Shown here: piece by piece, positions 15,769 through 53,841 of the stretch
Layout of the letters: each line of letters opens with the position of its first letter
How positions within the stretch are numbered: position 1 is the stretch's first letter
NCBI GenBank assembly: GCA_044352155.1
Contig: JBILEK010000003.1
Location: 834 to 64,833 of the forward strand
Origin: Bdellovibrionia bacterium
GTDB lineage: Bacteria; Bdellovibrionota; UBA1018; JBILEK01
Length of the DNA stretch: 64,000 bases
Direction: 5' to 3'
Made by a program: the position numbers and the translations under genes
The notes under the pieces: model-generated
The model's database searches: none
Seen by the model: only the letters and a program-made list of their open reading frames with translations
Told to the model about the DNA's origin: nothing

Positions 15769-16392
15769 CTATCTCCCGGACTTGCGCTCAAAGTACTGAA
15801 GATCAATAAACAAAGCAGATGCGACGAGTACCAATCGCTCCTCATAGCTAAGCGCCTCGTCTATGAACTCAAGCTCAAAGCGATCCGCATCCGTAAACCC
15901 TTCGCGCAGGAGGCCTCCCCACTGCTTTCGCACAACTGCACGCTCTTGTCCGCGCGCCTTAAAAGGAAACGTCCATGGCTTCCAAATGGGAGAGCGAACT
16001 TCTAGCTCCACTCGTCCTTGGGGATTTTCTAAGTCAAACTTTTTTTGCAAAAACGAAAAGCGCTGTTGAAGTGCCCCTAAACAGGCTCCCTCAGGGCTAA
16101 ACACCTCTAGTCTCTGAAAGAAGAATCGAAACGGATGATGTGCACGAGCGACGACGGATTTGTTCGAAGAGAAAATCAAAATATCAAAAGTTCTCCAGTG
16201 CCCGAGCATCTGGCGCATCAAAAAACCAAGCACTCCTTTCTGTTGCTCTGCTGCAAACCCTGCAACATTGCCGTCGATTTGGATTTCGTACTTGTTGCGC
16301 GTCTCAAACCCTAGAAGCTCAGAGAGCTCGCGTCGTTGTTGAATACTGAGGCTCTTGGCTGATCCAAGTTGATCCATGATGAGCTGATCCAT
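15769..16392 (-). CDS. Scramblase-family (PLSCR/Tubby-like fold) protein
   Basis: Pattern matches phospholipid scramblase family (GNVAGF...EQ...F..L..Q..G.WR.F.I...EVFSPEGACLGALQQRF...F.L....G). Inference from motif memory. Confidence 0.5.
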   Translation of the reverse strand: MDQLIMDQLGSAKSLSIQQRRELSELLGFETRNKYEIQIDGNVAGFAAEQQKGVLGFLMRQMLGHWRTFDILIFSSNKSVVARAHHPFRFFFQRLEVFSPEGACLGALQQRFSFLQKKFDLENPQGRVELEVRSPIWKPWTFPFKARGQERAVVRKQWGGLLREGFTDADRFELEFIDEALSYEERLVLVASALFIDLQYFERKSGR

Positions 16393-16394
16393 GA

Positions 16395-17804
16395 TTAAAG
16401 TTTATTGACCGAGTCTAGAGCCGCGGTCTTGTAGGCTTCGGCAAGCGTGGGATAGTTAAACACAGATTCTACAAAATACTCGAGATCGCCACCTAAAATC
16501 ATTACGGCTTGCCCGATATGAATCAGGTCAGCCGCGCTATCCCCAATGATGTGCACTCCAAGAAGCTTTTGCGTTTTTCGATCCACAAGCATCTTAAGCA
16601 AACCCCAACGATCCCCAACGATTTGGCCCCGTGCAACTTCCTTGTACTTGGCGCGACCAACGACGTAATCTGCGCCCCTCTTTTTGAGCTCTTCCTCTGA
16701 CTCGCCGATCGTTGAGATCTCAGGGATCGTATAGATTCCATACGGGTAGAACTCAGGCATTCGCGCGAGCGTGGCACTTCGAACCCCAAATGCGTGACAA
16801 GCAGCGATACGCCCCTGCTCCATGCTGGTAGATGCAAGGGCCGGAAATCCGACCACATCTCCCACTGCGTAGATGTGAGGCACAGACGTACGAAAATACG
16901 CGTCCACAGAGAGTAGCCCCCGCTCATCAGGAGAAAGTCCGGCGTTGCTTAAGCCCAGATCCTCGGTGTTGCCATGACGTCCTTGTGCGATTAGGAGTGC
17001 CTCGGCCTCGCAAACTTTTCCGTTCGAAAGTCGCACTCGGACTCGGTCTTTTAGCGTATCGACTTTCTCAGACTCACATCCCAGATGAATCTGCATACCC
17101 GCGTAGCCAAACCAGTTGAGCAGACTCTCGACGATTTCACGATCGATGTTACTTAAAATCTCTTTTCTTTTGTCAATCAAAGTGACTTTGCAGCCTGCAA
17201 TCGCAAACATACTTGCAAACTCACACCCAATAATCCCGGCACCTAAAACGATAAGACTTTTGGGCATCTTCTTTAAGCGAAGCACCGTGTTGCTGTCTAA
17301 AACGCGCTTTGCATCCACGCGCAGAGGGTCAGGCGCACGCGGGGACGCTCCCACTGCAATCACAAAGTAGGTTGCTGAGAACTTTTTCTTTCCTTTTCGA
17401 GTTTGGACTTCGATTTCTTTTGGCCCACTAAAGCGCGCGTGCCCGTGCATCAGTTGGATCTTGTTACGCTTGAGTTGATCGAAAATGATCTGCGACTCTT
17501 GACTAATGACTCGATCTTTCCGCCGAAGTAAACGCTGCATCTCGGGAAGCTCTTGTCGCGCTTTTTTAAAGGTCGTACTCCTTTTCGTCTCAAGCGCCTC
17601 TCCCAGAGTGCCGCTTGAGCGCAGAGCCCAGCGGTACACCGACTCGCGAAACGACTTCGACGGCAGAGTCCCAAAATGGACGCAAGCTCCACCCACCGCA
17701 TCGTACTCTTCGACGAGCATCACTTTTTTTCCCGCTTTCGCGGCTTGGAGCGCAGCCTTCTGGCCGCCGGGGCCAGATCCAATGACAATGAGATCGAAGT
17801 GCAT
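16395..17804 (-). CDS. sthA: Soluble pyridine nucleotide transhydrogenase (SthA/UdhA-type flavoprotein disulfide reductase family)
   Basis: GSGPGG FAD motif, single-Cys GGACVHFGTLPSK as in SthA rather than the LpdA CxxxxC pair, second GAGIIGCE NAD motif, C-terminal FNYPTLAEAY. Confidence 0.75.
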   Translation of the reverse strand: MHFDLIVIGSGPGGQKAALQAAKAGKKVMLVEEYDAVGGACVHFGTLPSKSFRESVYRWALRSSGTLGEALETKRSTTFKKARQELPEMQRLLRRKDRVISQESQIIFDQLKRNKIQLMHGHARFSGPKEIEVQTRKGKKKFSATYFVIAVGASPRAPDPLRVDAKRVLDSNTVLRLKKMPKSLIVLGAGIIGCEFASMFAIAGCKVTLIDKRKEILSNIDREIVESLLNWFGYAGMQIHLGCESEKVDTLKDRVRVRLSNGKVCEAEALLIAQGRHGNTEDLGLSNAGLSPDERGLLSVDAYFRTSVPHIYAVGDVVGFPALASTSMEQGRIAACHAFGVRSATLARMPEFYPYGIYTIPEISTIGESEEELKKRGADYVVGRAKYKEVARGQIVGDRWGLLKMLVDRKTQKLLGVHIIGDSAADLIHIGQAVMILGGDLEYFVESVFNYPTLAEAYKTAALDSVNKL

Positions 17805-17945: not shown

Positions 17946-19106
17946 CTATGCTGCCGCAAGCGTCGGATCGGCACGTAAAAGCTCCACATACCACTCAGGA
18001 GCGGCGAATTTCTCTCGCGGAAACGGAATCCGGTTGAGCTCAATCTCGTGCATGAAACTCGGCAGATTCCCCACCGCGATCATCTCTCCAATGATCTTTC
18101 CATCCTGCGACTTACCCCTCTGAACAAAGCGATAGATGTCGCGGATCTGGTAGCGTCCCTGATCATCTACTTCTGGAATCACTTCCGAAATATGTGTGAC
18201 CTTGCGTGTGCCATCGGACATGCGCTTGATCTGAACGACGATGTGGATTGCAGCCGAAATCTGTCGACGAATCGCAGCTACCGGAATGTTGGAGTCGCCC
18301 ATCATGGAAAGTGTCTCAAGACGCACCAACGCATCGTAGGGCGTGTTCGCGTGGGTTGTACCCATGGAGCCGCCGTGCCCCGTGTTCATCGCGTTGATTA
18401 AATCTAGCGATTCTGCTCCTCGCACTTCCCCGACCACAATTCGATCAGGCCGCAAGCGCAGAGCCGACTTCAGCAAGTCGCGAATTGAGACCGCTCCCTG
18501 ACCGCGCTCATCTGCATGCTTGGTCTCAAAATAGATCACATGAGAGGTTGCGATCTTAAGCTCAGAGGAATCCTCAATGATCAAAAGTCGTTGATTTCCT
18601 GGAATGCGAGATCCCACGACGTTGAGTAACGTCGTTTTCCCTGAGCCCGTGCCACCTGAAATGATCATATTGCGCGCAAGATAAACGCATACGTCCAGAA
18701 ATCGCGCAGCATCTTTTGAGATCGAACCACGGTTGATGAGATCGACGAAAGTGGGAGAAGTGCGCGAAAACTTTCGAATCGAGAGTGTGCTGCCGTTTCG
18801 AGTGGGACCCGCTTTAGAGACAGGGGGAAACACTGCAGCCACGCGCTCTCCTGTAGGGAGACGTGCATCTAAGATTGGGTGATCGAGATCAATTCTTCGT
18901 CCCACGGATTGAGCAATGTTTCGGATCGCAGCCTGAAGCGCCTGCTCGTCAATGAACTGTGCTGATGTTTTTTCAAGCATCCCTTTGCGCTCAACAAAAA
19001 CTTCTTTTGGGCCGTTCACGAGCACTTCGGTGACCGAATCGTCTTCTAAGTACTCAGCGATTGGACCTAAAAAAGTCTTAATTGAATCGCGAAAGACTTC
19101 ACTCAT
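17946..19106 (-). CDS. cpaF: CpaF/TadA-family type II/IV secretion ATPase
   Basis: VNGPKEVFVERKG N-domain, Walker A GGTGSGKTT, RIVVGEVRGAES, His box GHGGSMGTTHANT. Confidence 0.8.
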   Translation of the reverse strand: MSEVFRDSIKTFLGPIAEYLEDDSVTEVLVNGPKEVFVERKGMLEKTSAQFIDEQALQAAIRNIAQSVGRRIDLDHPILDARLPTGERVAAVFPPVSKAGPTRNGSTLSIRKFSRTSPTFVDLINRGSISKDAARFLDVCVYLARNMIISGGTGSGKTTLLNVVGSRIPGNQRLLIIEDSSELKIATSHVIYFETKHADERGQGAVSIRDLLKSALRLRPDRIVVGEVRGAESLDLINAMNTGHGGSMGTTHANTPYDALVRLETLSMMGDSNIPVAAIRRQISAAIHIVVQIKRMSDGTRKVTHISEVIPEVDDQGRYQIRDIYRFVQRGKSQDGKIIGEMIAVGNLPSFMHEIELNRIPFPREKFAAPEWYVELLRADPTLAAA

Positions 19107-19651
19107 TCAGAGACAAGCTCCCGCACAACTAAGGTGCCTTCCATCCCATTGACCGGGCAGTAGAACCTGAATTTCCCTGGAGTGGAGGGAGTGAAGGTGA
19201 TTTCTTCGATTTTTTGAGCGCGCACTTGTTTACGGACATTAAACGCGTCCATCATCACGCAGAGCGTGCCTTTGGAAGCACCTGTGACAAAAAGGCGCAC
19301 TGGCACATCGCGAGTCACAAAAACGGTTTTAGGGAAATACCCGAGATCCCCTGCAATCAGCGCAATTTCTTGCACTCCTTTGGTCCGATCAGGAACCAAA
19401 GACTGAAGGCGATCAAGCGAATTTGTTTTTGGTGCAGCAGGCACTTCGTCGCCGGGAGGGCTTACGGACCCAAGCGAAGCAAGCGCACGCCCGGAGTGAG
19501 GTTGCATTGGCTCAAAACCAAAGCGTGACTCTGCGAAAGTCTCGCCTGAGTCACGCGCTTTAGGGGGTGGAGGCAAGAACACGACATCCGCCAAAACAGG
19601 CGCACACCAGAGCAACAAACCTAAACTCATGACCTTGAGGGCTCTTTCCAT
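19103..19651 (-). CDS. Exported hypothetical protein with cupredoxin-like C-terminal region (start chosen at MERALKV signal peptide; ORF track allows 19807)
   Basis: Signal peptide MSLGLLLWCAPVLA, poly-Pro linker, C-terminal beta-rich segment with FYCPVNGMEGTLVV resembling a cupredoxin C-M end but lacking the usual His. The stop overlaps the cpaF start by 4 nt, implying co-transcription. Confidence 0.4.
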   Translation of the reverse strand: MERALKVMSLGLLLWCAPVLADVVFLPPPPKARDSGETFAESRFGFEPMQPHSGRALASLGSVSPPGDEVPAAPKTNSLDRLQSLVPDRTKGVQEIALIAGDLGYFPKTVFVTRDVPVRLFVTGASKGTLCVMMDAFNVRKQVRAQKIEEITFTPSTPGKFRFYCPVNGMEGTLVVRELVSE

Positions 19652-19833: not shown

Positions 19834-22068
19834 ATGCACTCAATCAGGGGCTTTACTCTTGTCGAGATCATGATTGCGATGGGGCTTACAGCGAGCGTGG
19901 GGCTTGGATCACTTGCGCTCCTCGACCACTTAGGCAAGGGGATCAAAAGTGTGACCGATCGAGCCGATATCGTAAGCACGCTCTCGAGCGTTTCGACTTT
20001 GCTCTCAGATCCTACTCTGTGCGCAAGCGCACTTACCGCCGTACAAAAAGGAACCCCCTCCAGAGTGCGCGTACCGGACTCACTACGATCGAGCGACGCA
20101 GGAGTTTTAGGGGCTCCTTACTTTAGCTGGGAGAGCGAAGTGGGGCAGTTCCAAAAAGTCTCTTCCGATCAAATCCGCTATGTCGGGCTGATGGGCGTTC
20201 CAACGCAGGATGGAGGTCTTAGCCAAGTCCTCTTAGCCTCAGCCGATGCGGCTGAGCTTTTTGGACTCCCACAGACGATCCCAGGCAACACCAACGTCCG
20301 CATCGCAGAGATGGGTCTCGTGCGGATGACGCCAAAAGAGGACGTCCGTATCGACGGCGAGTCCTGTAGGGTGCAAGTGCAGTTGAGGATGGTGTTTGAA
20401 AAAGTGGACCGCCGTATCTCTACCGGCGCGTCGCGCTTTGAGCGCAATTTCTTACTCAATGCTCGCGTAAAATGTCCAGAAGGCCGCATGGAAGGAGTAC
20501 ACCCCCTCCAGAGCTGTGGCCTGCAAGCTCCGAACAATGCAGATCTCTGCCTTGAGCTTGGCGGAGTCTACTCCCCCACTCGTCCACCCGCTGATCGCTG
20601 CTTGTTTGAGCAAAAGCGTTTTGCAAACCCTCACCCTGCCGGATCGCCGTCCGTAATCGACTATGACACCGCGATTGAGCTTGATCCAAACCCACTGCAA
20701 GGCGCCGCTGTTTCACGTGGGATCACTGATGTGTTTCCTGGACGGATCCAGCTTCACGGAAACGGTAACACCGTACAAACGCTCGACACAGCGATTGATC
20801 AGCACGGACCCAGCGGACAACTTGCGTTTTCGCGCTCCACCGGATCACTTACAGGTCGAGGACTGATCCGTGGTCAGCCTGATAGACTCAGTGCTCAAAC
20901 TAGCCTCGGGGTGATCACTTTTCGTGGACTCAACTCCGTCACCCATCCAACATACAGTGGCGCTCCCCATAACGGTCGCGAGTTTGTTCAGGCAGTTGGA
21001 ATCACCGCAAGCACCGACGGCAACTGGACACAAAACTCGAGCCCCTCACGAATCAACTTCACGACTACGCGCAGTGGTGTTGACACCTGGTTTGCACGCC
21101 CGCCGTTGCAATCGAGTTTTGGCAATCGGCCCGAACTGATCCGACAATACCCAGACTCTCCGGATGCAAACGCAATGACGATCCCAACGCTTTCAGTACG
21201 TGAAAGTCAAGCTCTTGAGGCGGCTGCAGAGATCCGTTTCGGAGTGGCCACCCGTATGGGTGACGGCAGTCCGCGCAGTGAGCCTCAACCTGGGCAGAGT
21301 TACAATGGAGGCACTCATCCCAACACGACGGCCTCAGGTTTAAGAGTGACTCACCGTCGTGGAGGGACCTTAAGAGTGCTCACCACTCCAGTCAGCACGC
21401 CGGGTTATGGCTACCAGAGCAAACTTGCTCTTAGCTCAGAGAGCGACCTCATTCAAGTACTCCAGCTCCGTAACAACGAGACCGGCGAGAACCTGGATCT
21501 TGAAATGCGCGATCTTCACGCACGAGACTTGTACCTGGCTCAGAACAACCCTAAGCAAAACTTAAGCGTCCTTGCAGCCGAAAACGACCAAGGACGAGCG
21601 CGCTGGCTTACGCCAAAGTATATCAAAATGGCAGGAAGCGTAAATCTCACCGATAGCTTGCAAGGAGAGCTAAATCTCTCTCGCTGTATCGCAAGGAGCC
21701 AGGGAGGAAGCACTCAGAACATCCATGGCATCTACGACGGAACAGATCTCAACCAGATCAACTGCCACAATCTCCAGTTCACCAATGGCGACGCAATCCC
21801 TAACGGACATCCGATTCTGGATCGAATCGGAATGACCGATACCGTAGGCACTCGCCGCTCCCCGACTCCGACTAACCCCATACAATGGGACATGTGCTTT
21901 CTCTCCGAGAACGTCATCATGCCCTCATCAGCCGCCACCGCCACTAACAGCAGCCCCACAGGTTGTGTGATCGATATTACTCCAAATGGCTGGCGGCTCA
22001 CCGGGATCAAGAGCTCTCATACTGCAATTAAGTGCGAAGCGTTCTGTGTGAAAATGGTGTTTGAATGA
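19834..22068 (+). CDS. Large (744 aa) type IV pilin-like / pseudopilin-like protein with class III (prepilin) signal and Cys-rich Gly/Ser/Thr/Asn-rich extracellular region
   Basis: N-terminus MHSIRG-FTLVEIMIAMGL is a canonical prepilin peptidase motif (G at -1, F at +1, E at +5, hydrophobic helix). About 14 Cys in the remainder. Coding frame verified from ATG 19834. Confidence 0.7.
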   Translation: MHSIRGFTLVEIMIAMGLTASVGLGSLALLDHLGKGIKSVTDRADIVSTLSSVSTLLSDPTLCASALTAVQKGTPSRVRVPDSLRSSDAGVLGAPYFSWESEVGQFQKVSSDQIRYVGLMGVPTQDGGLSQVLLASADAAELFGLPQTIPGNTNVRIAEMGLVRMTPKEDVRIDGESCRVQVQLRMVFEKVDRRISTGASRFERNFLLNARVKCPEGRMEGVHPLQSCGLQAPNNADLCLELGGVYSPTRPPADRCLFEQKRFANPHPAGSPSVIDYDTAIELDPNPLQGAAVSRGITDVFPGRIQLHGNGNTVQTLDTAIDQHGPSGQLAFSRSTGSLTGRGLIRGQPDRLSAQTSLGVITFRGLNSVTHPTYSGAPHNGREFVQAVGITASTDGNWTQNSSPSRINFTTTRSGVDTWFARPPLQSSFGNRPELIRQYPDSPDANAMTIPTLSVRESQALEAAAEIRFGVATRMGDGSPRSEPQPGQSYNGGTHPNTTASGLRVTHRRGGTLRVLTTPVSTPGYGYQSKLALSSESDLIQVLQLRNNETGENLDLEMRDLHARDLYLAQNNPKQNLSVLAAENDQGRARWLTPKYIKMAGSVNLTDSLQGELNLSRCIARSQGGSTQNIHGIYDGTDLNQINCHNLQFTNGDAIPNGHPILDRIGMTDTVGTRRSPTPTNPIQWDMCFLSENVIMPSSAATATNSSPTGCVIDITPNGWRLTGIKSSHTAIKCEAFCVKMVFE

Positions 22069-22999: not shown

Positions 23000-24217
23000 C
23001 TACTGATGGTGGTGGTGCACTGATTCTGCCAGGCGCGGATCGCCGATGGCAACGACATTGTTCTTCGACAAGAAGCGCAATGCTGCAAACAAGAATAGCC
23101 CCAAGAAACCAAGCGTCACACCAATCTCAAAGATCCCGACGCGCGGGCCATCTTTGAAGAAATTGGGCTGAACAAGCCACAAGATATCGATCCACTGCGC
23201 GATCAGCATGAACACTGCAACTGCGACGAGCCACTTCTCGTTGCGTTTCGCGTCGCGACGGATCAACGCGAAAAACGGAACCATAAACTTACCGAACAGC
23301 AAGAACAAGGAGACATACATCCAGGATCCGCCGTTTTGCATGCGCTTGAGGTAAAAGCCCGTCTCCTCAGGCTGGTTTGCATACCAAATAAGCAAGAACT
23401 GAGAGATCGCGATGTAGGTCCAAAAAACCGTGAACGCAAACATGAACTTTCCAATATCGTGGAGATGATTTTCGTTCACGATCCCCGCAAGCACGCCCTT
23501 GCGCTTGAGCACGACCGTAAAGATCGCAAGCATCGCAAGTGTTGAGTAAAAGAGCCCCGCAAAGCAATAGATCCCAAAAATCGTCGAGAACCAATGCGGA
23601 TCAAGCGACATGATCTGATCAAAGCTCATCATTGTGAACCCGATCGCAAAGAAAATCAGAAACGCTGGCGTCAGCACCCGATTTTTGAGGGTCAGTCGGT
23701 AATCACCACTAGAGTCCTGGCGCACGGAGTTTCCGACCATCTTCCACGAAAAGAAAAACAAAATCGCAAATCCCACAAGATTGCGGATCGTAAAGAAACC
23801 CGCATTCAAGTAGCCCGATTTACCTCGAAGGATTGGATCCTTCATCACAGCCTCATGATCCATCCAGTGGTGATAAATGGGGTGAAGCGCCAGGCACACG
23901 CCAATCAAACTTAAGAGTGCGATCGGGAGATAAGCCGTAAACGACTCAGCCAAGCGACGCACTGGGGCTGACCACATTGCTCCTGTGATCCACTGAATTG
24001 CCGCGAAAAAAATCCCCCCCAGCGCCAAGCTCATAAAAAAGAAATGATTCACTAGATAGATCGACCAAGCACGATCTGCATTCGTGCGCCACAAAAAGAG
24101 AAACGACGCAAGTCCCGCAAGCATCAATGCAAAACACAGAAACTTGATCTCAGACGGTGTGGCGTAGGTCCCGGGGTTGCGAACCTTAAGGTCGTGGTGA
24201 CTTGCGTTTGCGCCCAT
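23000..24217 (-). CDS. actF: Alternative complex III subunit ActF (NrfD/PsrC-like integral membrane subunit); natural C-terminal HHHHQ tail
   Basis: Polytopic membrane protein, last gene of an actABCDEF-ordered operon. Confidence 0.7.
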   Translation of the reverse strand: MGANASHHDLKVRNPGTYATPSEIKFLCFALMLAGLASFLFLWRTNADRAWSIYLVNHFFFMSLALGGIFFAAIQWITGAMWSAPVRRLAESFTAYLPIALLSLIGVCLALHPIYHHWMDHEAVMKDPILRGKSGYLNAGFFTIRNLVGFAILFFFSWKMVGNSVRQDSSGDYRLTLKNRVLTPAFLIFFAIGFTMMSFDQIMSLDPHWFSTIFGIYCFAGLFYSTLAMLAIFTVVLKRKGVLAGIVNENHLHDIGKFMFAFTVFWTYIAISQFLLIWYANQPEETGFYLKRMQNGGSWMYVSLFLLFGKFMVPFFALIRRDAKRNEKWLVAVAVFMLIAQWIDILWLVQPNFFKDGPRVGIFEIGVTLGFLGLFLFAALRFLSKNNVVAIGDPRLAESVHHHHQ

Positions 24218-24220
24218 AGA

Positions 24221-24778
24221 TTAGAAACCTTCTGCTGCTTTCATTTCTTCGTTCGTCGGACTCTTCGCTTTTTGGAGTGCCCGAATGTAGTGAATGATCG
24301 CCCAGCGCGTCTGAGGGTCCACTTGCTGAGCATAGGAGGGCATTAGGTTCTGCCCTTTGGTGATCACGTGATAAATACTGCCGTCCGGATAGCCGCGGAT
24401 CTTGTCGCTTTGAAGGGAAGGCGGTTGTGGATATTTTGGGACGATCGAGCCGTTTCCTTCGCCATAAGTCCCATGGCAAACAGCGCAATAAACGTTGTAA
24501 TACTTTTGGCCTTCTTGAAGGACTTGACGGTTTTTAGGACGCGGATTTCGAAGACTTTTCCCAGCCTCTTCCAGCGTCTCGGGGACTTCATCTTTGACAA
24601 AGTTACGATGAATCGTCCCCTTCACCGGCATGCGAGGCGGGTACTCTTCCTGCGCCTTATAGCTCGGCTGATAAGCCATATCCGGCATGTAAATGAAGTT
24701 GGGATCTTTGTGCTTCCCACATCCCATCAACCCAAGCGCGAGAGCAGCCACCGGAGCGAGAGTGAATTGTTTCATCAC
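24221..24778 (-). CDS. actE: Alternative complex III subunit ActE (monoheme cytochrome c lipoprotein)
   Basis: Lipoprotein signal LALGLMGC, single CAVCH heme motif. Confidence 0.75.
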   Translation of the reverse strand: MMKQFTLAPVAALALGLMGCGKHKDPNFIYMPDMAYQPSYKAQEEYPPRMPVKGTIHRNFVKDEVPETLEEAGKSLRNPRPKNRQVLQEGQKYYNVYCAVCHGTYGEGNGSIVPKYPQPPSLQSDKIRGYPDGSIYHVITKGQNLMPSYAQQVDPQTRWAIIHYIRALQKAKSPTNEEMKAAEGF

Positions 24779-25399
24779 TTAAAACCACCCTTCATTGACG
24801 CACTTCTTTACTTCAACGGCGCCTGCTGAGCGAAGGAGCTGCTCTGCTTCTGCTGCATCAAACTTTTTGAAGCGAGCATGCTTTTTGACCTCTTCCTCGT
24901 CCTCCGCATCAAACTCAGGCTCCTCAATTACAATCGCAAAGCGATCGTTCGTGAGCGAAGGATCGAGGGCGCGTTTGTTTAGGTTCGGGAGACGGTTGAG
25001 TGCGAGCATCCCGAGCAGGGTCGAAATCCCAGCCAACAGAATCGTAAACTCAAACAGAACCGGAATGAACGCAGGCCACGAGTTAAACGGCTTACCTCCG
25101 ATGTTGTGAGCCCATCCCTGTCCGCCAAGGAAGTTGCCCAAAAAGATCTCGTGCGACGTGTAGTACTGAAGCCCAAATCCAATGCACGCTCCGGTTACGC
25201 CACCAAAAAAAGTAATCCAAGGGAGCCGAGAGCGCGCAAGTCCCTGCGCCTCGTCCATCCCATGCACCGGGAAAGGAGAGAACGCATCGAAGAGCTCGTA
25301 ATTGGCAGCACGCACTTTTTTCATACCCTCAAGCATGGCTTGAGGATTCGGGAAATAACCCAACACCGCTTTTCCACGCGGCAAAGCGTGATCAGACAT
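24779..25399 (-). CDS. actD: Alternative complex III subunit ActD
   Basis: About 200-aa membrane-anchored protein between actC and actE; operon position. Confidence 0.65.
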
Positions 25400-26789
25400 G
25401 AGAGCCTCCCTGCGTTTTTGATCCTGGCGGATCCATTACGCCTTTGATCTCTGACATCGCAAGCGTCGGCAGGAGCCGGCAGAACAGTAAGAACATCACG
25501 AAAAACAAACCAAACGCCCCAAAAGTCCATCCCCAATCGTACCAAGTCGGGAAATACATCGCCCAACTTGAAGGGATGAAGTCTTTATAGAGAGAGGTGA
25601 CCGTAATCACGTATCGCTCAAACCACATCCCGATGTTGACGTAGAGTGAGATGACAAACATCACGCCGACGTGCCTGCGCAATTTCTTGAACCAAAACAA
25701 CTGTGGGAAAAACACGTTGCACGAGACCATGATCCAATACGCCCACCAGTACTCACCAAAAGCACGGTTGATGAAGACGTATTTCTCAAATGGGTTACCC
25801 GAGTACCAAGCAATAAAAAACTCGCACGCATACGCGTAGCCCACCATCATGCCTGTCGCCATGATGATCTTGTTCATTTTTTCCAAGTGATCGAGCGTGA
25901 TGTATTGCTTGAAGTTAAACACTTCGCGCATGAACACGAGCAACGTCACAACCATCGCAAATCCAGAGAAAATGGCTCCGGCCACGAAGTAAGGTGGAAA
26001 AATCGTCGTGTGCCAACCCGGGATCATCGAAACTGCGAAATCAAACGAAACGATCGTGTGCACCGAGAGAACCAGAGGCGTCGAAAGGCCCGCAAAAATC
26101 ATGTATGCAATTTCATAATGGGACCAGTGCCGGTTGTTTCCGCGCCATCCCAAAGAGAGCATCGTTAAGATAGTTTTTCGGATCCCCGGTTGCGCACGGT
26201 CACGCAGCGAGGCCAAATCTGGAATCAGCCCCACAAACCAGAACAGAAGAGAAATCGTGAAGTACGTTGAAACTGCAAACACGTCCCAAAGAAGCGGGGA
26301 TCTGAAGTTCACCCACAACTGCCTCTGGTTTGGATAAGGAAGTAGCCAGTACGCCGCAAACCAAGGCCGCCCCGTATGGAGAAGCGGGAACGAGAGCGCC
26401 GTGATGACGGCAAAGATGGTCATCGCTTCGGCTGAACGGTTGATCGCTGTGCGCCACTTCTGTCGGAACAAAAACAAGATTGCAGAGATCAAAGTGCCCG
26501 CATGCCCGATCCCGACCCAGAACACGAAGTTCGTAATGTCCGTGCCCCAACCTGCCGGTTGATTGATTCCAAGCACCCCTTGTCCGCGCGTGACAAAAGA
26601 AAAAACAACGAACGCCCAGATCGCAAGTGCGGTCAGAGAGAAAAGAAAAATCCCCCACCAACGGCGCGTCGGAAACGTCTCAGCCGGAAGCGCAACGTCT
26701 TGATTGACGTCGGCATAGGTTTTCCCTCCCTGAACGAGGACTTCGGGCACATACTTCGTTTGATCCATCTCAGTGGTGTGCGTCGCCAT
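25392..26789 (-). CDS. actC: Alternative complex III subunit ActC (NrfD/PsrC-family quinol-interacting membrane subunit)
   Basis: 465-aa polytopic membrane protein following actB. Confidence 0.75.
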
Positions 26790-29700
26790 CGGCGGCTCCG
26801 TTCTTTTCGGTGTTGCGGACCACGTTTCTCACTTTGGAGAGATACGAAATCATCGGTTTTGCGTTTAAGATCTCAAGCACCCGGAACGCCCGAGCGTCTT
26901 CGCGGAGCTTGGAGACCTTGGAGTTCGGATCATTGACGTTGCCGAACACGATCGCCTCTGTTGGGCACGTCTGCTGACATGCTGTCTTAAGATCGGCATC
27001 CGTGATCTTGCGGCCTTGCGCCTTTGTCGTGTCGCGTGCCGTTTGAATGCGCTGAACACAGAATGAACACTTCTCCATCACCCCGCGTGTCCGCACGGTG
27101 ACATCTGGGTTCCACGCCAAATTCATCGTGTCTTTGTAGTCCTTCCAGTGATCAAAGAAGTTAAAGCGGCGCACTTTGTACGGGCAGTTGTTTGCGCAGT
27201 AGCGCGTGCCCACGCAACGGTTATAGGTCATTTGATTCAGACCTTCTTCGTTGTGCGAAGTCGCGATCACCGGACAGACCGTCTCGCAAGGTGCGTTCTC
27301 ACAGTGTTGGCAGAGCATCGGCTGAAACACGACTTCAGGATCGTTTGCAGGACCTGAGAAATAGCGATCGATCTTAATCCAGTGCATCTCTCGAGAGAAA
27401 CGCACGCGATCACGACCGACGACGGGGATATTGTTCTCCGCTTGGCAGGCGATCACACATGCGCCACATCCGGTGCAGGAACTCAGATCAATCGCCATCG
27501 CCCAACGGTAGCCTTGCGAGTAGTCGTGCTTAGGCCAGATGGTCGGCACAGGCTCCATGCGCAAGTGCGGATCCGTATGCGCCTCCGCTTTTGGGTTTTT
27601 ACGAAACTCCGCGAGCGTGATGTCGTTGACGATTGGGCGTCCTTCGGTACGGTGGTGTCCTTGCGTAATCGCAAGCTCAAAGCGCATTCCCGTCTTTACG
27701 ACTTTCACTCCGCTTCCGGACAGAACGTACTCTCGATCTGTGCGCGAGAGTTTAAACGCGTTCCAGCCACAGTTTTGGCCGACTTTACCCGCGCGCACTC
27801 GTCCATAGCCTGAGGCGATCGCAATCGTGCTCTGATGAAGACCCGGCTGCACAAGTACAGGGAGCTCAATACGACTCTCCGGCTTTTCAGCAAGCGAGAC
27901 CGCAACGACATCTCCGGTTTTGAGTTGATTTAAGCGCGCAAACTCCACCGAAACTGCAGCAAAGTTATCCCAAGTCGCTGTCGTCATCGGATCCGGCATC
28001 TCAAGGAGCCAAGGGTTGTTGGCGAAACGTCCATCCCCCATTGCAGCAGATGAGTAAATTGCAAGTCGAGGCTCGTTGCTCGCAGGTTTAAACGCAGGAA
28101 TTACTGGAGCACTTCCCGCACGGATGGAGCGCGCACTTCCGCGTGAGGGCAGCCCGACCCAGCCCTTTTGGAGAGCATGATCCCAGCTCAGTCCCTTAAA
28201 TCGCGCTGCAAAGCCTTTGCGTAGCACATCATACCAAGTGCCCGAAGCGCTCATCTTAAGTCCCGCAGCCTTGCCCCATTGCAAAAGCGAGTCTTCAAAA
28301 GCGCGCGTATCGTGCAGAGGCGCGATCGCAGGCTGCTGAAGAGCATAAACTCCTACCGCAGGCTCAGCGTCGCCCCAGTTCTCAAGATAGTGATGATCCC
28401 CTGCGACCGCATCGCCTAAGGCTGCGGTCTCATCGATCCGATCTGCAACTGAGACCACGAACTTCACTTTTTTCAGAAGAGCTTCAAAACCTGGAACACT
28501 GTATACGGGGTTTGAGCGATGCAGGATGAGGACATCAACAGAGCCTGAACGCATCTCTTCCATCAGCTTAGCGAAGTACTTATACCCTCGACCTACGTAC
28601 GAGCGCCCGGTCATGACGGTCTGGCCTTCGTTTCCGAGAGCGGAGTTCAGCATCGCAACCACGCACTGAAGTGCGAGCGAATCCTCGGAGCGCGAGTCTG
28701 CCCCACCTGCGACGACGAGCGATGTTCCGCGCGCGGATCTTAGCGCTGCCGCTGCAGCTTTGAGGCGCTCCAGGGCCTGCGCGCTCCCCACGTCTTTTGC
28801 AACGGCATCAAGCGTATAGCCTTGCGCTCGAGCCATCTGAGGCGCGATCTCGGAGAGAAGTGCCATGGCGATCTTGAGCTCATCACCAGGGCGGATGGCC
28901 ACACGCTCATCTGCGTTCGCTCCCGTAAGTGAGTAGTTGGACTCAAAAGCAAAGAGTCGAGACATCTTTGCTCCAGAAGCACGAGCGGAGTCGAGCTTGC
29001 GATTGGACATCCAAGCGCGCGCGTTTGACTCACTTTGGGGCCACGCCCCCAAAAAATCCCCACCAATCGAAACCACGACTTGGGCCCGAGTGAAATCGTA
29101 GGCCGGGATCGCTCGATTCCCCGTAAGCAACTCGGCCGCATCCGCCTGTGAGTCGAGATCCAAAGGCTCAAAATGAATAACTTGCCCGTCGCGGAAAGCG
29201 CCACAGAACTCGCGCGCAAGCGCAAGAGTTTGAGGTCCTGGGGTCACCCCGAGCAGCATGCGCACGCGAGCAGCACTTGAAAGCGCGCTCACGACACGCG
29301 CATCGAGCTCATCCCAGGGCACTTGTTTTTCAGCGCCTGTCGCGCGATCAATCAGCGTCGCGCCCTTGGCTCGATCCAGATCATAGAGATTGAGCACCGA
29401 AGCCTGCACCTGTGCTGAGACCGTGCCGCCTGTGGTCGAATCAAGATCGTTGCCTTCGAGCTTGATGGGGCGACCTTCGCGCGTTTTCACTAAGATTGCG
29501 GGCGTATCCGACACATCTTTACAGACTGAAGCGTAGTAGTTTGCCTTGCCTGGCGTGATCTGTTCGGGCGGGACGACGTAGGGAATGATCTTGTGCACCG
29601 GCCGACGTGCACACGCGAGCGTCGACATCGCAGTCGCTGCGCCCATCAAGGTCAAAAACTCGCGTCGCGCAACACCTTGCGTGTCGAGTTTCTCGAGCGC

Positions 29701-29856
29701 TTCTAAGGTCTCGATGGGCTTGTGGAGAAACTCTCGACCTCGCGACTCCTGCTGAGCCTCATCACTCCAGTACTGAGCGGAGAGCTCTTCAAGTCCCGAC
29801 CAGTGACGGGGGGGAGTAAATCCTTCGGCGGAAGCGGGCGTGTTTTCGTCTTTCAT
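26770..29856 (-). CDS. actB: Alternative complex III subunit ActB (molybdopterin-oxidoreductase-like domain fused to 4Fe-4S ferredoxin domain), Tat-exported
   Basis: Twin-arginine signal [20 protein letters not shown]; multiple ferredoxin Cys clusters ([41 protein letters not shown]...CQQTCP); 1028 aa. Confidence 0.85.
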
Positions 29857-29865
29857 GATGATTCC

Positions 29866-30528
29866 TTAATAGTGGCAGACTGCGCAGTTAAACGGCGCAA
29901 CGGGTTTGCCTTTGGCTTCTTCTGCCGTGAGTCCGGGGTGAGTTTTTTCAACAAGCCACGCTGGGGTGGTCTGGCCACGATGGCACTCAAGACACCATCC
30001 CATGGTGAGAGGTTTGTCCTGATAAACGACTTCCATATCCTGAATCGGACCGTGGCACTGCTGACAGGAGATCCCCTTTTCGATGTGGGGGCGATGATTG
30101 AATTTCGCGTGATCCGGAAGCTCATGAATTCGGATCCACTGGATCGGAGTGTTTGACGTACAGTTAAACTGATCGTCTGGCTTGCAGTGCTCCCAGATCT
30201 TTTGAACTTCGGGGCTATCGGTCTTCACCACGCGGTGGCAGTTCATGCAGACTTGCACCGCAGGCACCGAGGCGTGAGGACCTTTTTCGACGTTGATGTG
30301 GCAGTACTTACAATCGATCTTGAGCTCCCCTGCATGGAGCTTGTGGCTATAAGCAATGGGCTGCGTGGGCATGTACCCCTGGTTCGTGGACGTTGGAAAA
30401 ACGTACGCGATCACTGGGATCCCTAGAAGCACGCCTAAAACCAGAGTGAAAAAACCGAGCTTCTTTTGAACGCTCCAATTCCTCTGGACACCACCCGCCG
30501 GATCTTCTGCCATAAGCACCTTTAACAC
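29866..30528 (-). CDS. actA: Alternative complex III subunit ActA (pentaheme cytochrome c, membrane-anchored)
   Basis: Five CxxCH motifs (CKYCH, CMNCH, CQQCH, CLECH, CAVCH) after an N-terminal TM anchor. Start may be the second ATG (30513). Confidence 0.85.
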   Translation of the reverse strand: MLKVLMAEDPAGGVQRNWSVQKKLGFFTLVLGVLLGIPVIAYVFPTSTNQGYMPTQPIAYSHKLHAGELKIDCKYCHINVEKGPHASVPAVQVCMNCHRVVKTDSPEVQKIWEHCKPDDQFNCTSNTPIQWIRIHELPDHAKFNHRPHIEKGISCQQCHGPIQDMEVVYQDKPLTMGWCLECHRGQTTPAWLVEKTHPGLTAEEAKGKPVAPFNCAVCHY

Positions 30529-41314: not shown

Positions 41315-41339
41315 ATCAAAAATGACCACAATCAACGCA
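41315..41339 (-). repeat. IS right terminal inverted repeat (IRR)
   Basis: Reverse complement identical to IRL; encodes the last five codons plus TGA stop (KNWLR-stop) of the minus-strand ccsA. Confidence 0.65.
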
Positions 41340-43035
41340 GCCAGTTTTTACCCTTCACAATTGCAGTACACCCGAGCACATAGGCGAGCTTGATCCCTAT
41401 TCCGATCCACACCCCACCAGATGCGCCACTCGTGAATCCGTACGAGTGCAACCCAACTCCTAAAATAAAGTTCACGCCGTACCACGCCATCATTACCGAC
41501 AAAAAGCTCACCACCGTCCAGACCGCAAACCCAAACCGTCCCACCCAGCCCGCATAGCGTCCATGGAGCACAGCCAGGTAACACAATAGAGCAATGAGAG
41601 CCCAAACCTCTTTGGGATCCCAACCCCAGAATCGACCCCACGAGTAGTCCGCCCACACTCCCCCTAAAATCGTCCCTGCCGCAAGCAGCACGACTCCGTA
41701 CTGCATGGATCGATAAGCAAGTTGATTCATTTGATCGATCGACTCACGAAACGATCTGCCGGTGATCTTTTCTCGCGCAAATTGAAAAAGCGAAACATCC
41801 GCAAGCCCCATCGAGAGCGCAAAAGCGGCGTAGCTGATCGTGATCGTCAGCACATGAACGGTGAGCCAGAGGTTACTTCGCAAAACCGGGACAAGAGGAT
41901 GGATCCCAGGATCCATGACGGCAGGCGCTGCATCAGCAGCGATTAGGCCAAAAGCTGCTAGAAAACATGAGGTCGCAAGCAAAATCAATTGTCGCTGATA
42001 GTAGTAAAGGATGAGCCCAAAAAAGAGCACTCCAAATGCAACCCAAACAATCGACTCATACATATTGCTCACCGGCGGACGACCCGCGATGTAGCACCGA
42101 AACGCAAACCCCAGCGTGTGCACAGCAAACCCCAGCCCCAGAAACACCCAGGCACTTGCGCGCAGGAGCTTTGAGTTTGCTCCCGCCCCGAGAGCCGCCC
42201 ACAAGATGGCCGAGAGCAAATAGAGGATCCACGCCCAAAGAAACGGATGCCACTCATTGTACAGGCGCTCGGCGCGCATCAAAGTGTCTAAGCGTGGGGC
42301 TCCAAGATTTGCGATACTCTGCTCTACTGCTTCACGCGCTTTCTCACTCGCAGACTCAAAACCCGTCTGATCTCCAGAGTAGTAAGCACGGATCATCTCC
42401 GCATAAAGTGCAGGCACACTCGATCTATCCGTCGAGCTTAGCCCCTCCATCCTCGCTTGCGCGAGCGACTTCCAAGGCTCAGGAGAGCGCTCAGGGATCA
42501 CGCCCCAGGCCTCTCCGCTGACTAGAGCTCGAAAGAGACTGATCCCTTGGATCACTCGCTCGAACTCTTTTTCACGCACAGGTTGAAGCGAGGTGCCAGC
42601 GGTCGCATTTTCTTTGCTGATCGTATTCTTTTTTACTCCGGCACTTGCGTACTGCGCGACTGCCGGATTGCTCAGAAGTTCTTCAGGAGAGAATCTCGAT
42701 CTCGACTCATCTAAAAGCAGCTGGCGCTTGACTTCTTGGTGGTTGATTTTAATGAACTCGCGCTTCTGCCATACTTCGGGCGCTGAAATGAGTGAAAACA
42801 TCAAATCAACCGGGTCCCAACCCTGATACGTCCGCGATGAAGTGAGCGAAAGAACAACTTCACGCGCATAGGTATCAAATGGCTTAAAGCGGCCGCCCGC
42901 CTGCACAGGGATCAAACCTGCTGGACCAAAGTTCCACGTCTTGCGTCGTTCTCCGGCTTCTGGACGAGACTTTTCTTGCGCATTTGCAAAAGGCACTGAC
43001 AAAACGAGCGCAATCAAGAGACCGAGAGTTTTCAT
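41332..43035 (-). CDS. ccsA: Cytochrome c-type biogenesis protein CcsA/ResC (system II heme lyase component)
   Basis: WGWDPKEVWAL tryptophan-rich WWD motif, conserved His residues, polytopic; follows ccsB. Confidence 0.85.
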   Translation of the reverse strand: MKTLGLLIALVLSVPFANAQEKSRPEAGERRKTWNFGPAGLIPVQAGGRFKPFDTYAREVVLSLTSSRTYQGWDPVDLMFSLISAPEVWQKREFIKINHQEVKRQLLLDESRSRFSPEELLSNPAVAQYASAGVKKNTISKENATAGTSLQPVREKEFERVIQGISLFRALVSGEAWGVIPERSPEPWKSLAQARMEGLSSTDRSSVPALYAEMIRAYYSGDQTGFESASEKAREAVEQSIANLGAPRLDTLMRAERLYNEWHPFLWAWILYLLSAILWAALGAGANSKLLRASAWVFLGLGFAVHTLGFAFRCYIAGRPPVSNMYESIVWVAFGVLFFGLILYYYQRQLILLATSCFLAAFGLIAADAAPAVMDPGIHPLVPVLRSNLWLTVHVLTITISYAAFALSMGLADVSLFQFAREKITGRSFRESIDQMNQLAYRSMQYGVVLLAAGTILGGVWADYSWGRFWGWDPKEVWALIALLCYLAVLHGRYAGWVGRFGFAVWTVVSFLSVMMAWYGVNFILGVGLHSYGFTSGASGGVWIGIGIKLAYVLGCTAIVKGKNWLR

Positions 43036-44471
43036 ATTTTCCTCGCTTTTGAACGACTTTTTTGTTCGCGCAAGCGCACGTAAAACAAGAGAACGGAACC
43101 TAAGACAATGAGAAAAGATCCTAAGTACTTTAAAAATCGTCCTGGATCTCGATTCACAGAGAGAACGCTTGTGATCGGACGTGGCTCTGCTGGAATGTAG
43201 CTGGACTGGTAGAACGTGTAGCCCCCGTACTTGAGTGGCTCGTTCATACTGATGCGCACAGGCGAGAGCATGCGACCATCCTCTGCGCGGACGCGCACAA
43301 GTGAGCTATACTCCATTGGGTTTCGAGTGCCTGCGTAGTGATCGATTCGAAATTCCTCAAGGTGAATCGAAAAAGGCAAGCGCTGCTTTGCGGGCACGTA
43401 AGAGACTTCGACTGAGGCTTTTTCGGTATTGAACTGAGTGCGATCGCCAAGACCAAGCCATTTTTCGACCCTCTGTACACCTGCCCCCCCCACGACGAGG
43501 ATTGCACCTGTAGGAGCATCAGCACCATACTGGATGCGGGCCCGCGTGAAACTTGAAGTGTTGATCGCGTCAGGGATCCACTCTCGGAGTAGAATTTTCA
43601 TTCCCATCCAACCGGGATCAAGCTCGCGACCGGGGATTTGATCTTTCTGAAGGACTCCGCTCTTAACGCCCGCCTCTCCCGAGCTGATCCGATACGCAAG
43701 CGCGCCATCAGACAGAGCACGGATCTCAAACTTGCCGCGCTCATGGGCCTGAGACTCTGGAAAGCTCTTGGCTCCAACTGGATGCAAGATAAACTGCGCA
43801 GGCCCAAAGCTCACATAGCTCCACTCGGCCTCCCCACCCCAAAGCCAGAGTGTTTGGTTGAGATCCATCGGACCACCCTGAAGAACAAACTGAAGCGCAG
43901 GACCTCGACGCTCACCCCGCGCGATCGCTTCAGGAGTGATGGGTGAGAACTGAAAAAACGGCTCCGCACGAGAGAGATACTCTTTGATCTCAAGATCGTA
44001 CTCAGGGATCGTACGCGGCGAGTACTTTCGATGTGGCGGCAACCAAGGAAACTGAAACGACGTCGCCTGAACCGGTGAGCGCGAGAGCTCACGCACTTGC
44101 ACGAGCGCGTTCTCACTTTCAAGCCATGGCTGCGCCTCTCCCTCACTGACAACTAGGTTTGCATCCACGCCTGAGAGCTGCGTCCAAAAAGAGCCCGCAA
44201 GCAAAAGCAAAATCCCAAGATGCGCGAGCAGAAATGGGGTGTGCCTCTTTCGCCAAGGCCAGCGACTGAGCGCGACGACGAGGATGTTGAGACCCAAGAG
44301 CGCGAGCAATGCATTGAACCAGGGAGCGCGATAGACCCAGTATTTTCCGGTGGGAATATCGTAAATCGACTCAATAAACGTCGCAGCCGCCAGAGCTGCT
44401 GAGAGCCCAAGAATCACGATGACCGCGAGCTTGAGCGAGGCTAAGAAACGAAACACCCTTTGCGCCAACAT
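43032..44471 (-). CDS. ccsB: Cytochrome c biogenesis protein CcsB/ResB
   Basis: N-terminal TM segments with large periplasmic domain and C-terminal TM, ResB-like N-terminus LKLAVIVILGLSAALAAATFIES; 4-nt overlap with ccsA. Confidence 0.8.
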   Translation of the reverse strand: MLAQRVFRFLASLKLAVIVILGLSAALAAATFIESIYDIPTGKYWVYRAPWFNALLALLGLNILVVALSRWPWRKRHTPFLLAHLGILLLLAGSFWTQLSGVDANLVVSEGEAQPWLESENALVQVRELSRSPVQATSFQFPWLPPHRKYSPRTIPEYDLEIKEYLSRAEPFFQFSPITPEAIARGERRGPALQFVLQGGPMDLNQTLWLWGGEAEWSYVSFGPAQFILHPVGAKSFPESQAHERGKFEIRALSDGALAYRISSGEAGVKSGVLQKDQIPGRELDPGWMGMKILLREWIPDAINTSSFTRARIQYGADAPTGAILVVGGAGVQRVEKWLGLGDRTQFNTEKASVEVSYVPAKQRLPFSIHLEEFRIDHYAGTRNPMEYSSLVRVRAEDGRMLSPVRISMNEPLKYGGYTFYQSSYIPAEPRPITSVLSVNRDPGRFLKYLGSFLIVLGSVLLFYVRLREQKSRSKARKI

Positions 44472-53196: not shown

Positions 53197-53841
53197 ATGC
53201 GTTCAGGTTTTCGTATTCCTTCTGTTGTTTGTCTTTTTCTCCTGCTGATGAGCCCTCTCGCTTCAGTGTCCCTGGGCGAGAGGGCTCCGGCGTGGAAGCA
53301 AGCTCCCCTTGAGCTTCGGGATCATGATCTTTCGCTCGCCATCGTTGGTGAGGGGTTTTTTTCACTGATCAATCCCATCAACGGACAACGTGTTTACTCG
53401 CGCGACGGCGACTTCACCCTGGATCGAGACGGATTCATTGCCCAGCGTGAGACAGGCTTTAGGCTCGAGATCGAGATCGGCTCAACTCTGGGTCCTTTGC
53501 GCCTCGGCAGCTTCCTGCACGCCGAGCGCAAAGGGAAAGTCCTGCGCCTCAGGCGGCTGAACATCAGCTCCTTTGGAGGCATTGAAGCGTATTACAACAA
53601 AAACGAGCGCCGGACTCTGGGGCAGATTAAAATCGCTCTTTTTGATCGACCCACTCAACTTCGCAGAGTCGGTACCCATCTTTTCGTCCCAAACGCCGAC
53701 TCAGGAGCCGCAGAGCTCCGCTCGCCGCGCCACACCGCACGCGTTGGCGGCATCGAATCAAGGGTGCTTGAGCGATTAACAGACTCCCACTACAAGTCGA
53801 TGCTATTTGAGTCGGACTTGCATGGACGGATCGCCCTGTAG
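53197..53841 (+). CDS. Exported protein with flagellar rod/hook (FlgF/FlgG-type) core domain but no N-terminal rod segment
   Basis: DLSLAIVGEGFFSLINPINGQRVYSRDGDFTLDRDGFI closely resembles FlgG DLDVAIEGQGFF...YTRDGSFQVDQNG; preceded by a signal peptide; 214 aa. Confidence 0.5.
   Translation: MRSGFRIPSVVCLFLLLMSPLASVSLGERAPAWKQAPLELRDHDLSLAIVGEGFFSLINPINGQRVYSRDGDFTLDRDGFIAQRETGFRLEIEIGSTLGPLRLGSFLHAERKGKVLRLRRLNISSFGGIEAYYNKNERRTLGQIKIALFDRPTQLRRVGTHLFVPNADSGAAELRSPRHTARVGGIESRVLERLTDSHYKSMLFESDLHGRIAL

Follow-up and report, generated by a model that had tools for sequence, protein, structure and literature searches.

A compact CpaF-family ATPase gene and an exported cupredoxin-domain gene form a conserved pair in Bdellovibrionota

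We analysed a 64,000-nt stretch of the genome of a Bdellovibrionia bacterium (assembly GCA_044352155.1, contig JBILEK010000003.1, positions 834-64,833 of the forward strand; hereafter the window), in which a gene for a CpaF/TadA-family ATPase directly follows a gene for an exported protein with a cupredoxin domain (hereafter the partner). A sequence-only reading of the stretch had singled out this pairing as unusual; the pairing is real and, moreover, conserved phylum-wide in Bdellovibrionota, probably as a two-gene operon. The explanation we prefer, with a probability of about 0.55, is that the ATPase serves as a second, non-redundant Tad-type motor on a platform encoded elsewhere in the genome, and that the partner, as a Cys2 cupredoxin of the periplasm, contributes to the same predation pathway. 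The pair and its parts lie in the window as follows.

17946..19106, minus strand: CpaF/TadA-family ATPase, 386 aa, made up of N-terminal domain 2 (NTD2) and the RecA-like C-terminal domain (CTD) only (Pfam T2SSE, E=2.7e-52; CpaF in the PDB, E=1.7e-81)
18630..18656, minus strand: Walker A motif (P-loop) GGTGSGKTT, ATPase residues 151-159, including Lys157, aligned to the CpaF P-loop
19103..19651, minus strand: exported cupredoxin-domain partner, 182-aa precursor (PF13473, 38.1 bits; AlphaFold2 [AF2] model and Foldseek)
19589..19651, minus strand: putative Sec-type signal peptide of the partner, residues 1-21, MERALKVMSLGLLLWCAPVLA, with an AxA-type site ahead of DVV (from the sequence and the family consensus)
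19517..19537, minus strand: FAESRFG linear motif in the disordered linker of the partner (partner alignments A1 and A2)
19118..19384, minus strand: cupredoxin domain of the partner, residues 90-178 (invariant columns of A2; AF2 model)
19103..19106, minus strand: ATGA, partner stop overlapping ATPase start

The 4-nt overlap between the ATPase and its upstream partner, described in the sequence-only reading, is the tetranucleotide ATGA, which suggests translational coupling of the two genes. The ATPase open reading frame (ORF) begins with ATG and has GGGAG ~12 nt upstream of this start; the ribosome-binding site of the partner ORF is GGAGAGAGG, and both sites are purine-rich. Scans for sigma-70 promoters and terminators around the pair in the window stayed at chance level. 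A candidate sigma-28-type promoter upstream of the pair was present in 2 of 54 loci and was set aside as not conserved.

To establish how constant the pairing is, loci were collected from both genes. A genome scan with the ATPase gave four loci in metagenome-assembled genomes (labelled Oligoflexia, Bdellovibrio sp., "Deltaproteobacteria" and WWE3), with a PF13473 gene immediately upstream in 4/4, and the same cupredoxin-ATPase pair was seen for four more homologues, on contigs of 0.6-1.7 Mb; searched from the ATPase side, the two genes were adjacent in 6/6 loci. A metagenome scan with the partner alignment produced 50 loci, and all loci, pooled and deduplicated, came to 58, two of which were untestable because their contigs end 78 and 170 nt past the partner stop. 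The ATPase gene directly follows the cupredoxin gene in all 56 testable non-redundant loci, with an estimated spacer of about -7 to +69 nt (median ~9 nt; ATPase starts were extrapolated from tblastn, mostly with unconfirmed start codons, and true spacers may be ~9 nt longer). Other neighbors are less constant: SthA was found in 11 of 28 loci, enolase in 12 of 28 and a small helical protein in 16 of 24. The SthA gene lies 3 nt from the ATPase gene in one locus with gene calls (L011), and tblastn matches to the two nearly abut in some others (L019, L043, L050). A divergent lineage (L055, L056, L058-60) keeps the pair (partner 39-45% and ATPase 52-59% identical), and there all other neighbors differ. 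A third obligatory gene was sought and not found, as SthA/PntAB and enolase are frequent yet not obligate and the small helical protein is missing from the window. The locus labelled candidate division WWE3 (L002, JBBRLF010000162.1) has the cupredoxin-ATPase-enolase arrangement typical of Bdellovibrionota and an ATPase 71% identical to that of the window, and is therefore probably mis-binned.

PhoH-PIN, SthA/PntAB and enolase genes form a syntenic block around the pair. Such a conserved housekeeping setting would suit an old, stable operon whose members share a transcript and have separate functions: the cupredoxin would serve respiratory cuproenzymes from the periplasm, as a copper chaperone or in a redox role, and the ATPase would be an ordinary, spare Tad paralogue. 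We regard this as unlikely, though deserving of serious attention: the two genes adjoin each other in 56/56 loci, against 39-67% for any other neighbor; spacers are tiny, with ATGA coupling in the window; and the pair outlives all other neighbors in distant lineages. Both genes are also under strong purifying selection. Mean pairwise distances across the same loci were 0.25 (ATPase), 0.27-0.33 (cupredoxin domain), 0.33 (enolase) and 0.38 (SthA), an unusually strong constraint on both genes, with the ATPase more conserved than enolase.

The ATPase is an intact member of the CpaF family, as had been read from the sequence: it matches Pfam T2SSE (PF00437) with 178 bits, and its best solved relative in a search of PDB sequences is Caulobacter crescentus CpaF (277 bits), with other relatives scoring lower (VirB11, 141 bits; archaeal GspE2, 126; FlaI, 118; PilT, 40). 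The best NCBIfam score was for TIGR03819 (TadA family conjugal transfer-associated ATPase; 295.8 bits, below the trusted cutoff of 373.15), and no equivalog cutoff was reached in the NCBIfam scan. All four ATPase motifs are intact (Walker A GGTGSGKTT, Asp box IIEDSSE, Walker B GEVRG and His box THAN), aligning to CpaF K287, E312, E357 and H382, and ATPase D73 aligns with CpaF D208, which an AlphaFold-Multimer model places in the CpaF loop that contacts the CpaG/CpaH platform (PMC11300603). ATPase residues 13-346 align with CpaF 148-474, and only 12 residues precede this, before the hinge-1 Gly. Because the alignment starts at CpaF residue 148, the ATPase lacks the disordered NTD0 and the three-helix NTD1; it is predicted to be a hexameric and catalytically intact enzyme reduced to NTD2 and CTD. 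Its C-terminal tail (P.F...L...LP...F) presumably resembles canonical CpaF C-termini.

More than 8000 homologues of the ATPase were found at 90% clustering, and the top 120 are 364-399 aa long and 72-94% identical to it. In a library clustered at 50% identity, the whole family collapses to one representative (P0247, 59% identical to the window ATPase); identity to canonical CpaF cores is ~45-52%, with CpaF representatives from outside the clade reaching at most 51%. In a neighbor-joining tree (no bootstrap; 145 outside CpaF representatives), 39 cupredoxin-linked ATPases, including that of the window, form one clade with P0247 as its single representative, and an N-terminal extension of 100 residues or more is seen in 114 of those 145 outside representatives. 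Set against C. crescentus CpaF (PDB 8rkd, 8rjf, 9e24), the bifunctional motor of a Tad (type IVc) system, the window ATPase shares the core of NTD2 and RecA-like CTD and keeps all four motifs and the equivalent of D208; it differs in lacking NTD0 and NTD1, in belonging to its own compact clade always found after a cupredoxin gene, and in never being encoded with tadB/C, cpaB/C/E or flp. In two members of the divergent lineage, the ATPase has an extra Ala/Gln-rich C-terminal tail of ~90 aa (L055, 6687-8069; L056, 5607-7058).

The ATPase is orphaned from Tad genes, as the sequence-only reading had claimed for its surroundings, and this holds across the full 64 kb. In 46 ORFs of 150 aa or more, taken from all parts of the window, Pfam scans returned no T2SSF/TadB/C, CpaB/RcpC, secretin, CpaE/TadZ, prepilin peptidase, Flp or TadE, and no Flp-type G/xxxxEY motif was found in any frame of the window. 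Elsewhere, no Tad families were found within 10 kb on either side of the pair in L005, L006, L010 or L011, and no platform protein (T2SSF/TadB/C) stands beside the pair in any annotated locus.

The partner matches Pfam Cupredoxin_1 (PF13473; gathering cutoff, 27 bits), as do all 391 partner homologues among the matches listed. Its precursor of 182 aa comprises the signal peptide (MERALKVMSLGLLLWCAPVLA, ahead of DVV), a PPPP run, a low-complexity linker and a C-terminal cupredoxin domain ending FYCPVNGMEGTLVV, so the description of an exported, poly-Pro, cupredoxin-like protein without His ligands stands; the 183 aa once given for the mature protein is in fact close to the precursor length, and the mature partner has ~161 aa. 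The signal peptide has the family consensus MxR...AxA, and AF2 places a helix at residues 3-15. No canonical lipobox is present in the signal peptide, and a lipoprotein or signal-anchored partner was rejected, as the Cys of LLWC is not conserved and the AxA cleavage site is. Two short motifs recur in the variable, disordered linker in alignments of 32 (A1) and 43 (A2) homologues: PESRFG (FAESRFG in the window; S42 and G45 invariant) and RxPAGL.

An AF2 model of the partner, proposed earlier as a check on its fold, has a mean predicted local distance difference test score of 73 (block means of 76-92 in the domain) and gives an eight-stranded Greek-key sandwich, with strands between residues 94 and 177; this is a cupredoxin fold and not an unrelated one. 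Foldseek ranked Bacillus anthracis Cupredoxin_1 structures first (4hcf/4hcg/4hci, with bound Cu or Zn), followed by CupA (4f2e) and then CuA domains; for 4hci, 4hcf and 4f2e, E was ~1e-7 and the target-normalised template modelling score 0.77-0.83, and across the CupA and B. anthracis structures as a whole this score was 0.75-0.83. Three residues are invariant in 43 sequences: C131 (LCVMMD; family LCxMMD), C165 (FYCPVNGMEG; family RFYCP..G.EG) and M133. There is no His in partner residues 90-182 and no conserved His column in A2, which excludes a type-1 or CuA copper site. A type-1 blue copper protein, implied by the JGI label "plastocyanin" on many homologues, was thus rejected for want of its His2-Cys-Met ligands, and a CuA site (H...CxExCxxxHxxM) was rejected because the two partner Cys are 34 residues apart and no His is present, leaving a likeness at the level of fold only.

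CupA of Streptococcus pneumoniae (4f2e, 2mry) was the only meaningful PDB sequence match of the partner. Like the B. anthracis structures, it belongs to PF13473, has the eight-stranded fold and, as in the partner, lacks type-1 His. Both partner cysteines align with the CupA pair Cys74/Cys111, which forms a high-affinity bis-thiolate Cu(I) site, S1 (PMC7558416). The Met-rich S2 site of CupA (CxMxM; C-G-M-N-M) is replaced by C-P-V-N-G-M in the partner, where M170 and M133/M134 remain; M170 is at least 90% conserved in the core family and is Ile or Lys in distant members. C131 and C165, with Met133, may form either a redox-active pair or a bis-thiolate site for a metal, probably Cu(I). CupA is membrane-anchored with its domain in the cytoplasm, whereas the partner would be exported to the periplasm by a cleavable Sec signal; the partner also has the long disordered linker with PESRFG and RxPAGL, and its gene neighbor is a CpaF ATPase, not CopA/CopY. 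No P1B ATPase was found among the partner's neighbors. That the closest characterised relative of the partner is a copper chaperone speaks for separate functions of the two genes, as does the presence in the window of alternative complex III and cytochrome c biogenesis genes.

Evidence from Bdellovibrio bacteriovorus bears more directly on function. CpaF/TadA genes of strain HD100 are bd0111 (hit locus), bd0793 and bd3307 (beside a secretin), with an orphan tadC, bd0470, and all four genes have lower transcript levels in host-independent strains than in attack phase (PMC3818213). The idea that the window cpaF is an extra paralogue finds support here, as B. bacteriovorus has tadA Bd0111 as well as cpaF Bd0793 and Bd3307. 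In transposon insertion sequencing (Tn-seq) of B. bacteriovorus 109J (Duncan et al. 2019, PMC6561027, Data Sets S4-S6), Bd0792 (EP01_RS17855; "hypothetical; PHYRE2 98% metal binding (Cupredoxins)") and Bd0793 (EP01_RS17860; "TadA subfamily") bear consecutive locus tags, so a cupredoxin-fold gene lies immediately upstream of an orphan TadA/CpaF ATPase gene as in the window, a likeness drawn from architecture and phylum. Both are listed there as hits; the pair, its conservation and its mechanism were not analysed. Fitness on planktonic Vibrio cholerae was 0.062 for Bd0792 and 0.0017 for Bd0793 (mini-pool fitness, 0.0004 for both), attachment scores were 0.58 and 0.49, prey survival with the mutants was 79 and 188%, and "Karunker AP Induced" values were 78 and 44, respectively (PMC6561027). 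Tad genes of the hit locus behave much like these two, and both the hit-locus tadA Bd0111 (fitness, 0.0018) and the orphan TadC Bd0470 are required for predation (PMC6561027). Because Bd0111 is itself required, the ATPases Bd0111 and Bd0793 are not redundant.

From identical architecture, membership of the same phylum and the universal adjacency of the pair, we infer that Bd0792 and Bd0793 are orthologues of the two window genes. Were this so, separate functions would fit less well, as both Bd0792 and Bd0793 are induced in attack phase and were hit for predation by insertions that could be recovered, which sets them apart from genes essential in axenic culture; a respiratory copper chaperone of general use should matter for axenic growth as well. 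Other genes near the B. bacteriovorus pair include Bd0789 (disulfide interchange protein; likewise a predation hit; fitness, 0.005; prey survival, 99%; PMC6561027 S3, S5), Bd0791 (cytochrome P450-like; a predation hit with fitness 0.08; PMC6561027) and EP01_RS17865 (hypothetical, the gene after Bd0793), which has no insertions in the axenic library (PMC6561027). A Dsb-type protein such as Bd0789 near a periplasmic Cys2 protein may be relevant.

In the mechanism that we favor, the partner would be Sec-exported to the periplasm, carrying its CupA-like domain behind the long disordered linker with two short motifs. The ATPase would most likely dock on platform proteins of the TadB/TadC type, whose genes would lie elsewhere in the genome, and act as the second motor of a Tad (type IVb/c) pilus or a Tad-like apparatus in prey attack, with the cupredoxin acting periplasmically in the same pathway. 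A parallel is the PilB/PilT split of type IVa systems, where a short ATPase without N-terminal domains (375-390 aa) likewise occurs beside a longer member from the main locus, both required (here Bd0793 and Bd0111); unlike PilT, the window ATPase is of the CpaF family. Tad systems studied so far run on one bifunctional CpaF (PMC6920026).

A more specific proposal would make the pair a Bdellovibrionota-specific device, in which the NTD1-less CpaF is the dedicated second motor of the predatory Tad apparatus (for example, for PilT-like retraction) and the cupredoxin a copper- or redox-responsive gate or an assembly component at the prey interface. We consider this improbable as it stands; the one pointer to a pilus-retraction role for the ATPase is its minimal PilT-like architecture, an analogy.

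Several observations weigh against a second Tad motor. Function of Caulobacter CpaF needs a flexible NTD1 hinge (PMC11300603), and the window ATPase has no NTD1. In no locus does the pair come with a gene for a platform, secretin or pilin, and the connection to Tad thus comes from family membership only. As its Sec signal is cleavable, the partner cannot itself link a cytoplasmic ATPase to the envelope, and it is hard to see how a periplasmic protein, once cleaved, would physically reach that ATPase. The partner has not kept the Met-rich S2 site of CupA. Mirror-tree analysis showed no pair-specific co-evolution (cupredoxin-ATPase r=0.40 overall, ~0 within the SthA or enolase subsets), a result that also favors separate functions: cupredoxin distances track those of SthA and enolase (r ~0.7), while those of the ATPase stay flat near 0.25 and show no correlation with any others. 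Finally, the orthology of Bd0792/Bd0793 comes from architecture and phylum-wide conservation, not from sequence comparison (no B. bacteriovorus protein was among the matches listed in the homology searches), and the transposon phenotype of Bd0792 could be a polar effect on Bd0793. As for the flat ATPase distances, narrow variance, saturation and recombination are possible reasons.

The same isolation from Tad genes invites a different explanation, namely that the ATPase powers an unrecognised, non-Tad envelope process through an unidentified membrane partner, with the cupredoxin as cargo or cofactor (for example, cupredoxin export or insertion, or a copper-dependent prey-attack factor). In its favor are a distinct, compact clade that lacks NTD1 and is in no case linked to Tad genes, a degree of conservation exceeding that of enolase, which points to a core machine more than to an accessory paralogue, and the motifs PESRFG and RxPAGL, which resemble docking sites. 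We nevertheless think it rather doubtful, since the ATPase is ~50% identical to canonical CpaF cores and keeps the platform-contact Asp, and the partner's ordinary Sec signal needs no special exporter. No T2SSE ATPase is known to do without a T2SSF- or VirB-type membrane partner.

The sequence-only reading had gone further and proposed a minimalist, self-contained secretion or retraction module made of the ATPase, the cupredoxin and a giant pilin-like protein. This protein and the gene on the other side of the pair are located in the window as follows.

19834..22068, plus strand: 744-aa prepilin-like protein, divergent from the pair, a neighbor outside the conserved module (N_methyl, 21.7 bits)
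16395..17804, minus strand: SthA-like soluble transhydrogenase (GGACVHFGTLPSK), downstream of the pair (Pfam Pyr_redox_2/Pyr_redox_dim)

The 744-aa ORF is transcribed divergently at 182 bp from the pair, and its N-terminus has a class III signal and a hydrophobic helix (MHSIRG followed by FTLVEIMIAMGLTASVGL; MHSIRG/FTLVEIMIA), marginally above the Pfam N_methyl cutoff (21.7 against 21.2, a borderline score) and below that of TIGR02532 (15.9 against 16.3). L055 and L056 have a different protein just upstream of the cupredoxin gene, a Cys-rich one of 330-349 aa (L055, 5113-6105; L056, 4029-5078) that has no Pfam family and a hydrophobic N-terminus, RGQSGNVILLLLL, which may be a signal anchor or pseudopilin-like; this, too, could be taken in favor of such a module. 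Synteny largely refutes the idea, however: the 744-aa gene adjoins the pair in a single species only (the window and loci L008 and L009), its protein belongs to a 90% cluster of 3 members, and it is not beside the pair in any other lineage, so that it was discarded as a conserved partner and regarded as lineage-specific. Its signal (G/FTLVE) is, as read from the sequence, of the T4a/T2SS type and not of the Flp/Tad type; prepilins of the T4a/T2SS type are processed and assembled by PilD/PilB/PilC-type machinery, not by Flp/Tad-type machinery. A platform protein, a secretin and a prepilin peptidase are all missing from the Pfam-scanned ORFs of the 64 kb. A self-contained module is thus very improbable. 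A short prepilin-like ORF (MKNEKG/MTLVEIMIASS...) also occurs at L005 17360-17578(+), 6.5 kb downstream of the ATPase gene on a 1.19-Mb Bdellovibrionota contig, and the Cys-rich 589-aa ORF that follows it is not homologous to the 744-aa protein of the window.

Both proteins come from known superfamilies, and their likely B. bacteriovorus counterparts are unexamined entries in a Tn-seq supplement. Our literature search returned no description of an obligate, phylum-wide coupling of a compact, NTD1-less CpaF clade with a periplasmic CupA-like cupredoxin, of a conservation of the two genes that equals or exceeds that of enolase, or of the misleading annotations "plastocyanin" and "pilus assembly protein CpaF"; such labels ("plastocyanin", "CpaF pilus assembly") on thousands of metagenomic proteins conceal one conserved module. 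Tad and type IV machinery is central to prey attachment and entry of the Bdellovibrio type, and the compact CpaF clade and its Cys2 cupredoxin would here be tied to the uncharacterised predation hits Bd0792/Bd0793. The pair offers a testable entry point, with two small genes, point-mutable residues (K157, C131 and C165) and a clear phenotype, and raises the questions of whether predators have a split-motor Tad system and what role a copper-type domain has in a pilus or secretion pathway. If the Bdellovibrionota-specific device were real, envelope metal or redox state would be linked to a type IV filament motor; to our knowledge, such a link has been described for no type IV filament system.

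Further genes around the pair are recorded here in their own right. Neighbors of the pair in the window encode the SthA-like transhydrogenase, a scramblase-family protein, HrpB, enolase, an RsmB-like methyltransferase and an alternative complex III operon. The scramblase (207 aa, 15769-16392, minus strand) has a match (E=9.5e-33) to PF03803, the phospholipid Scramblase family of eukaryote type, and lies just downstream of the SthA-like gene, also in L008. The alternative complex III-like operon (23000-30528, minus strand) contains ActD, an NrfD-like subunit, a 1028-aa Fe-S subunit, a multihaem cytochrome, a mono-haem cytochrome c and a 405-aa membrane protein without a Pfam match; ResB/CcsA cytochrome c biogenesis genes are located at 41332-44471. 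At 53197-55473, a 214-aa flagellar hook FlgE/F/G D1-like protein adjoins an opposite-strand 556-aa Peptidase_C25 (gingipain-family) protein. The small helical protein mentioned above has ~105-115 aa, the motifs NVISL, ELLEEMVxFQEER and SYRRHLE, a probably helical structure (by eye) and no Pfam family, and had no match in the 64-kb window. It was present in 16 of the 24 loci with sufficient upstream sequence, at 0.3-2.5 kb upstream of the pair and mostly in divergent orientation, often beside a PIN-PhoH gene, with coordinates in six of these loci as follows.

L005, 8937-9266, minus strand: small helical protein
L006, 7722-8069, minus strand: small helical protein
L010, 8916-9245, plus strand: small helical protein
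L011, 8660-8980, minus strand: small helical protein
L050, 9430-9756, minus strand: small helical protein
L054, 7329-7649, minus strand: small helical protein

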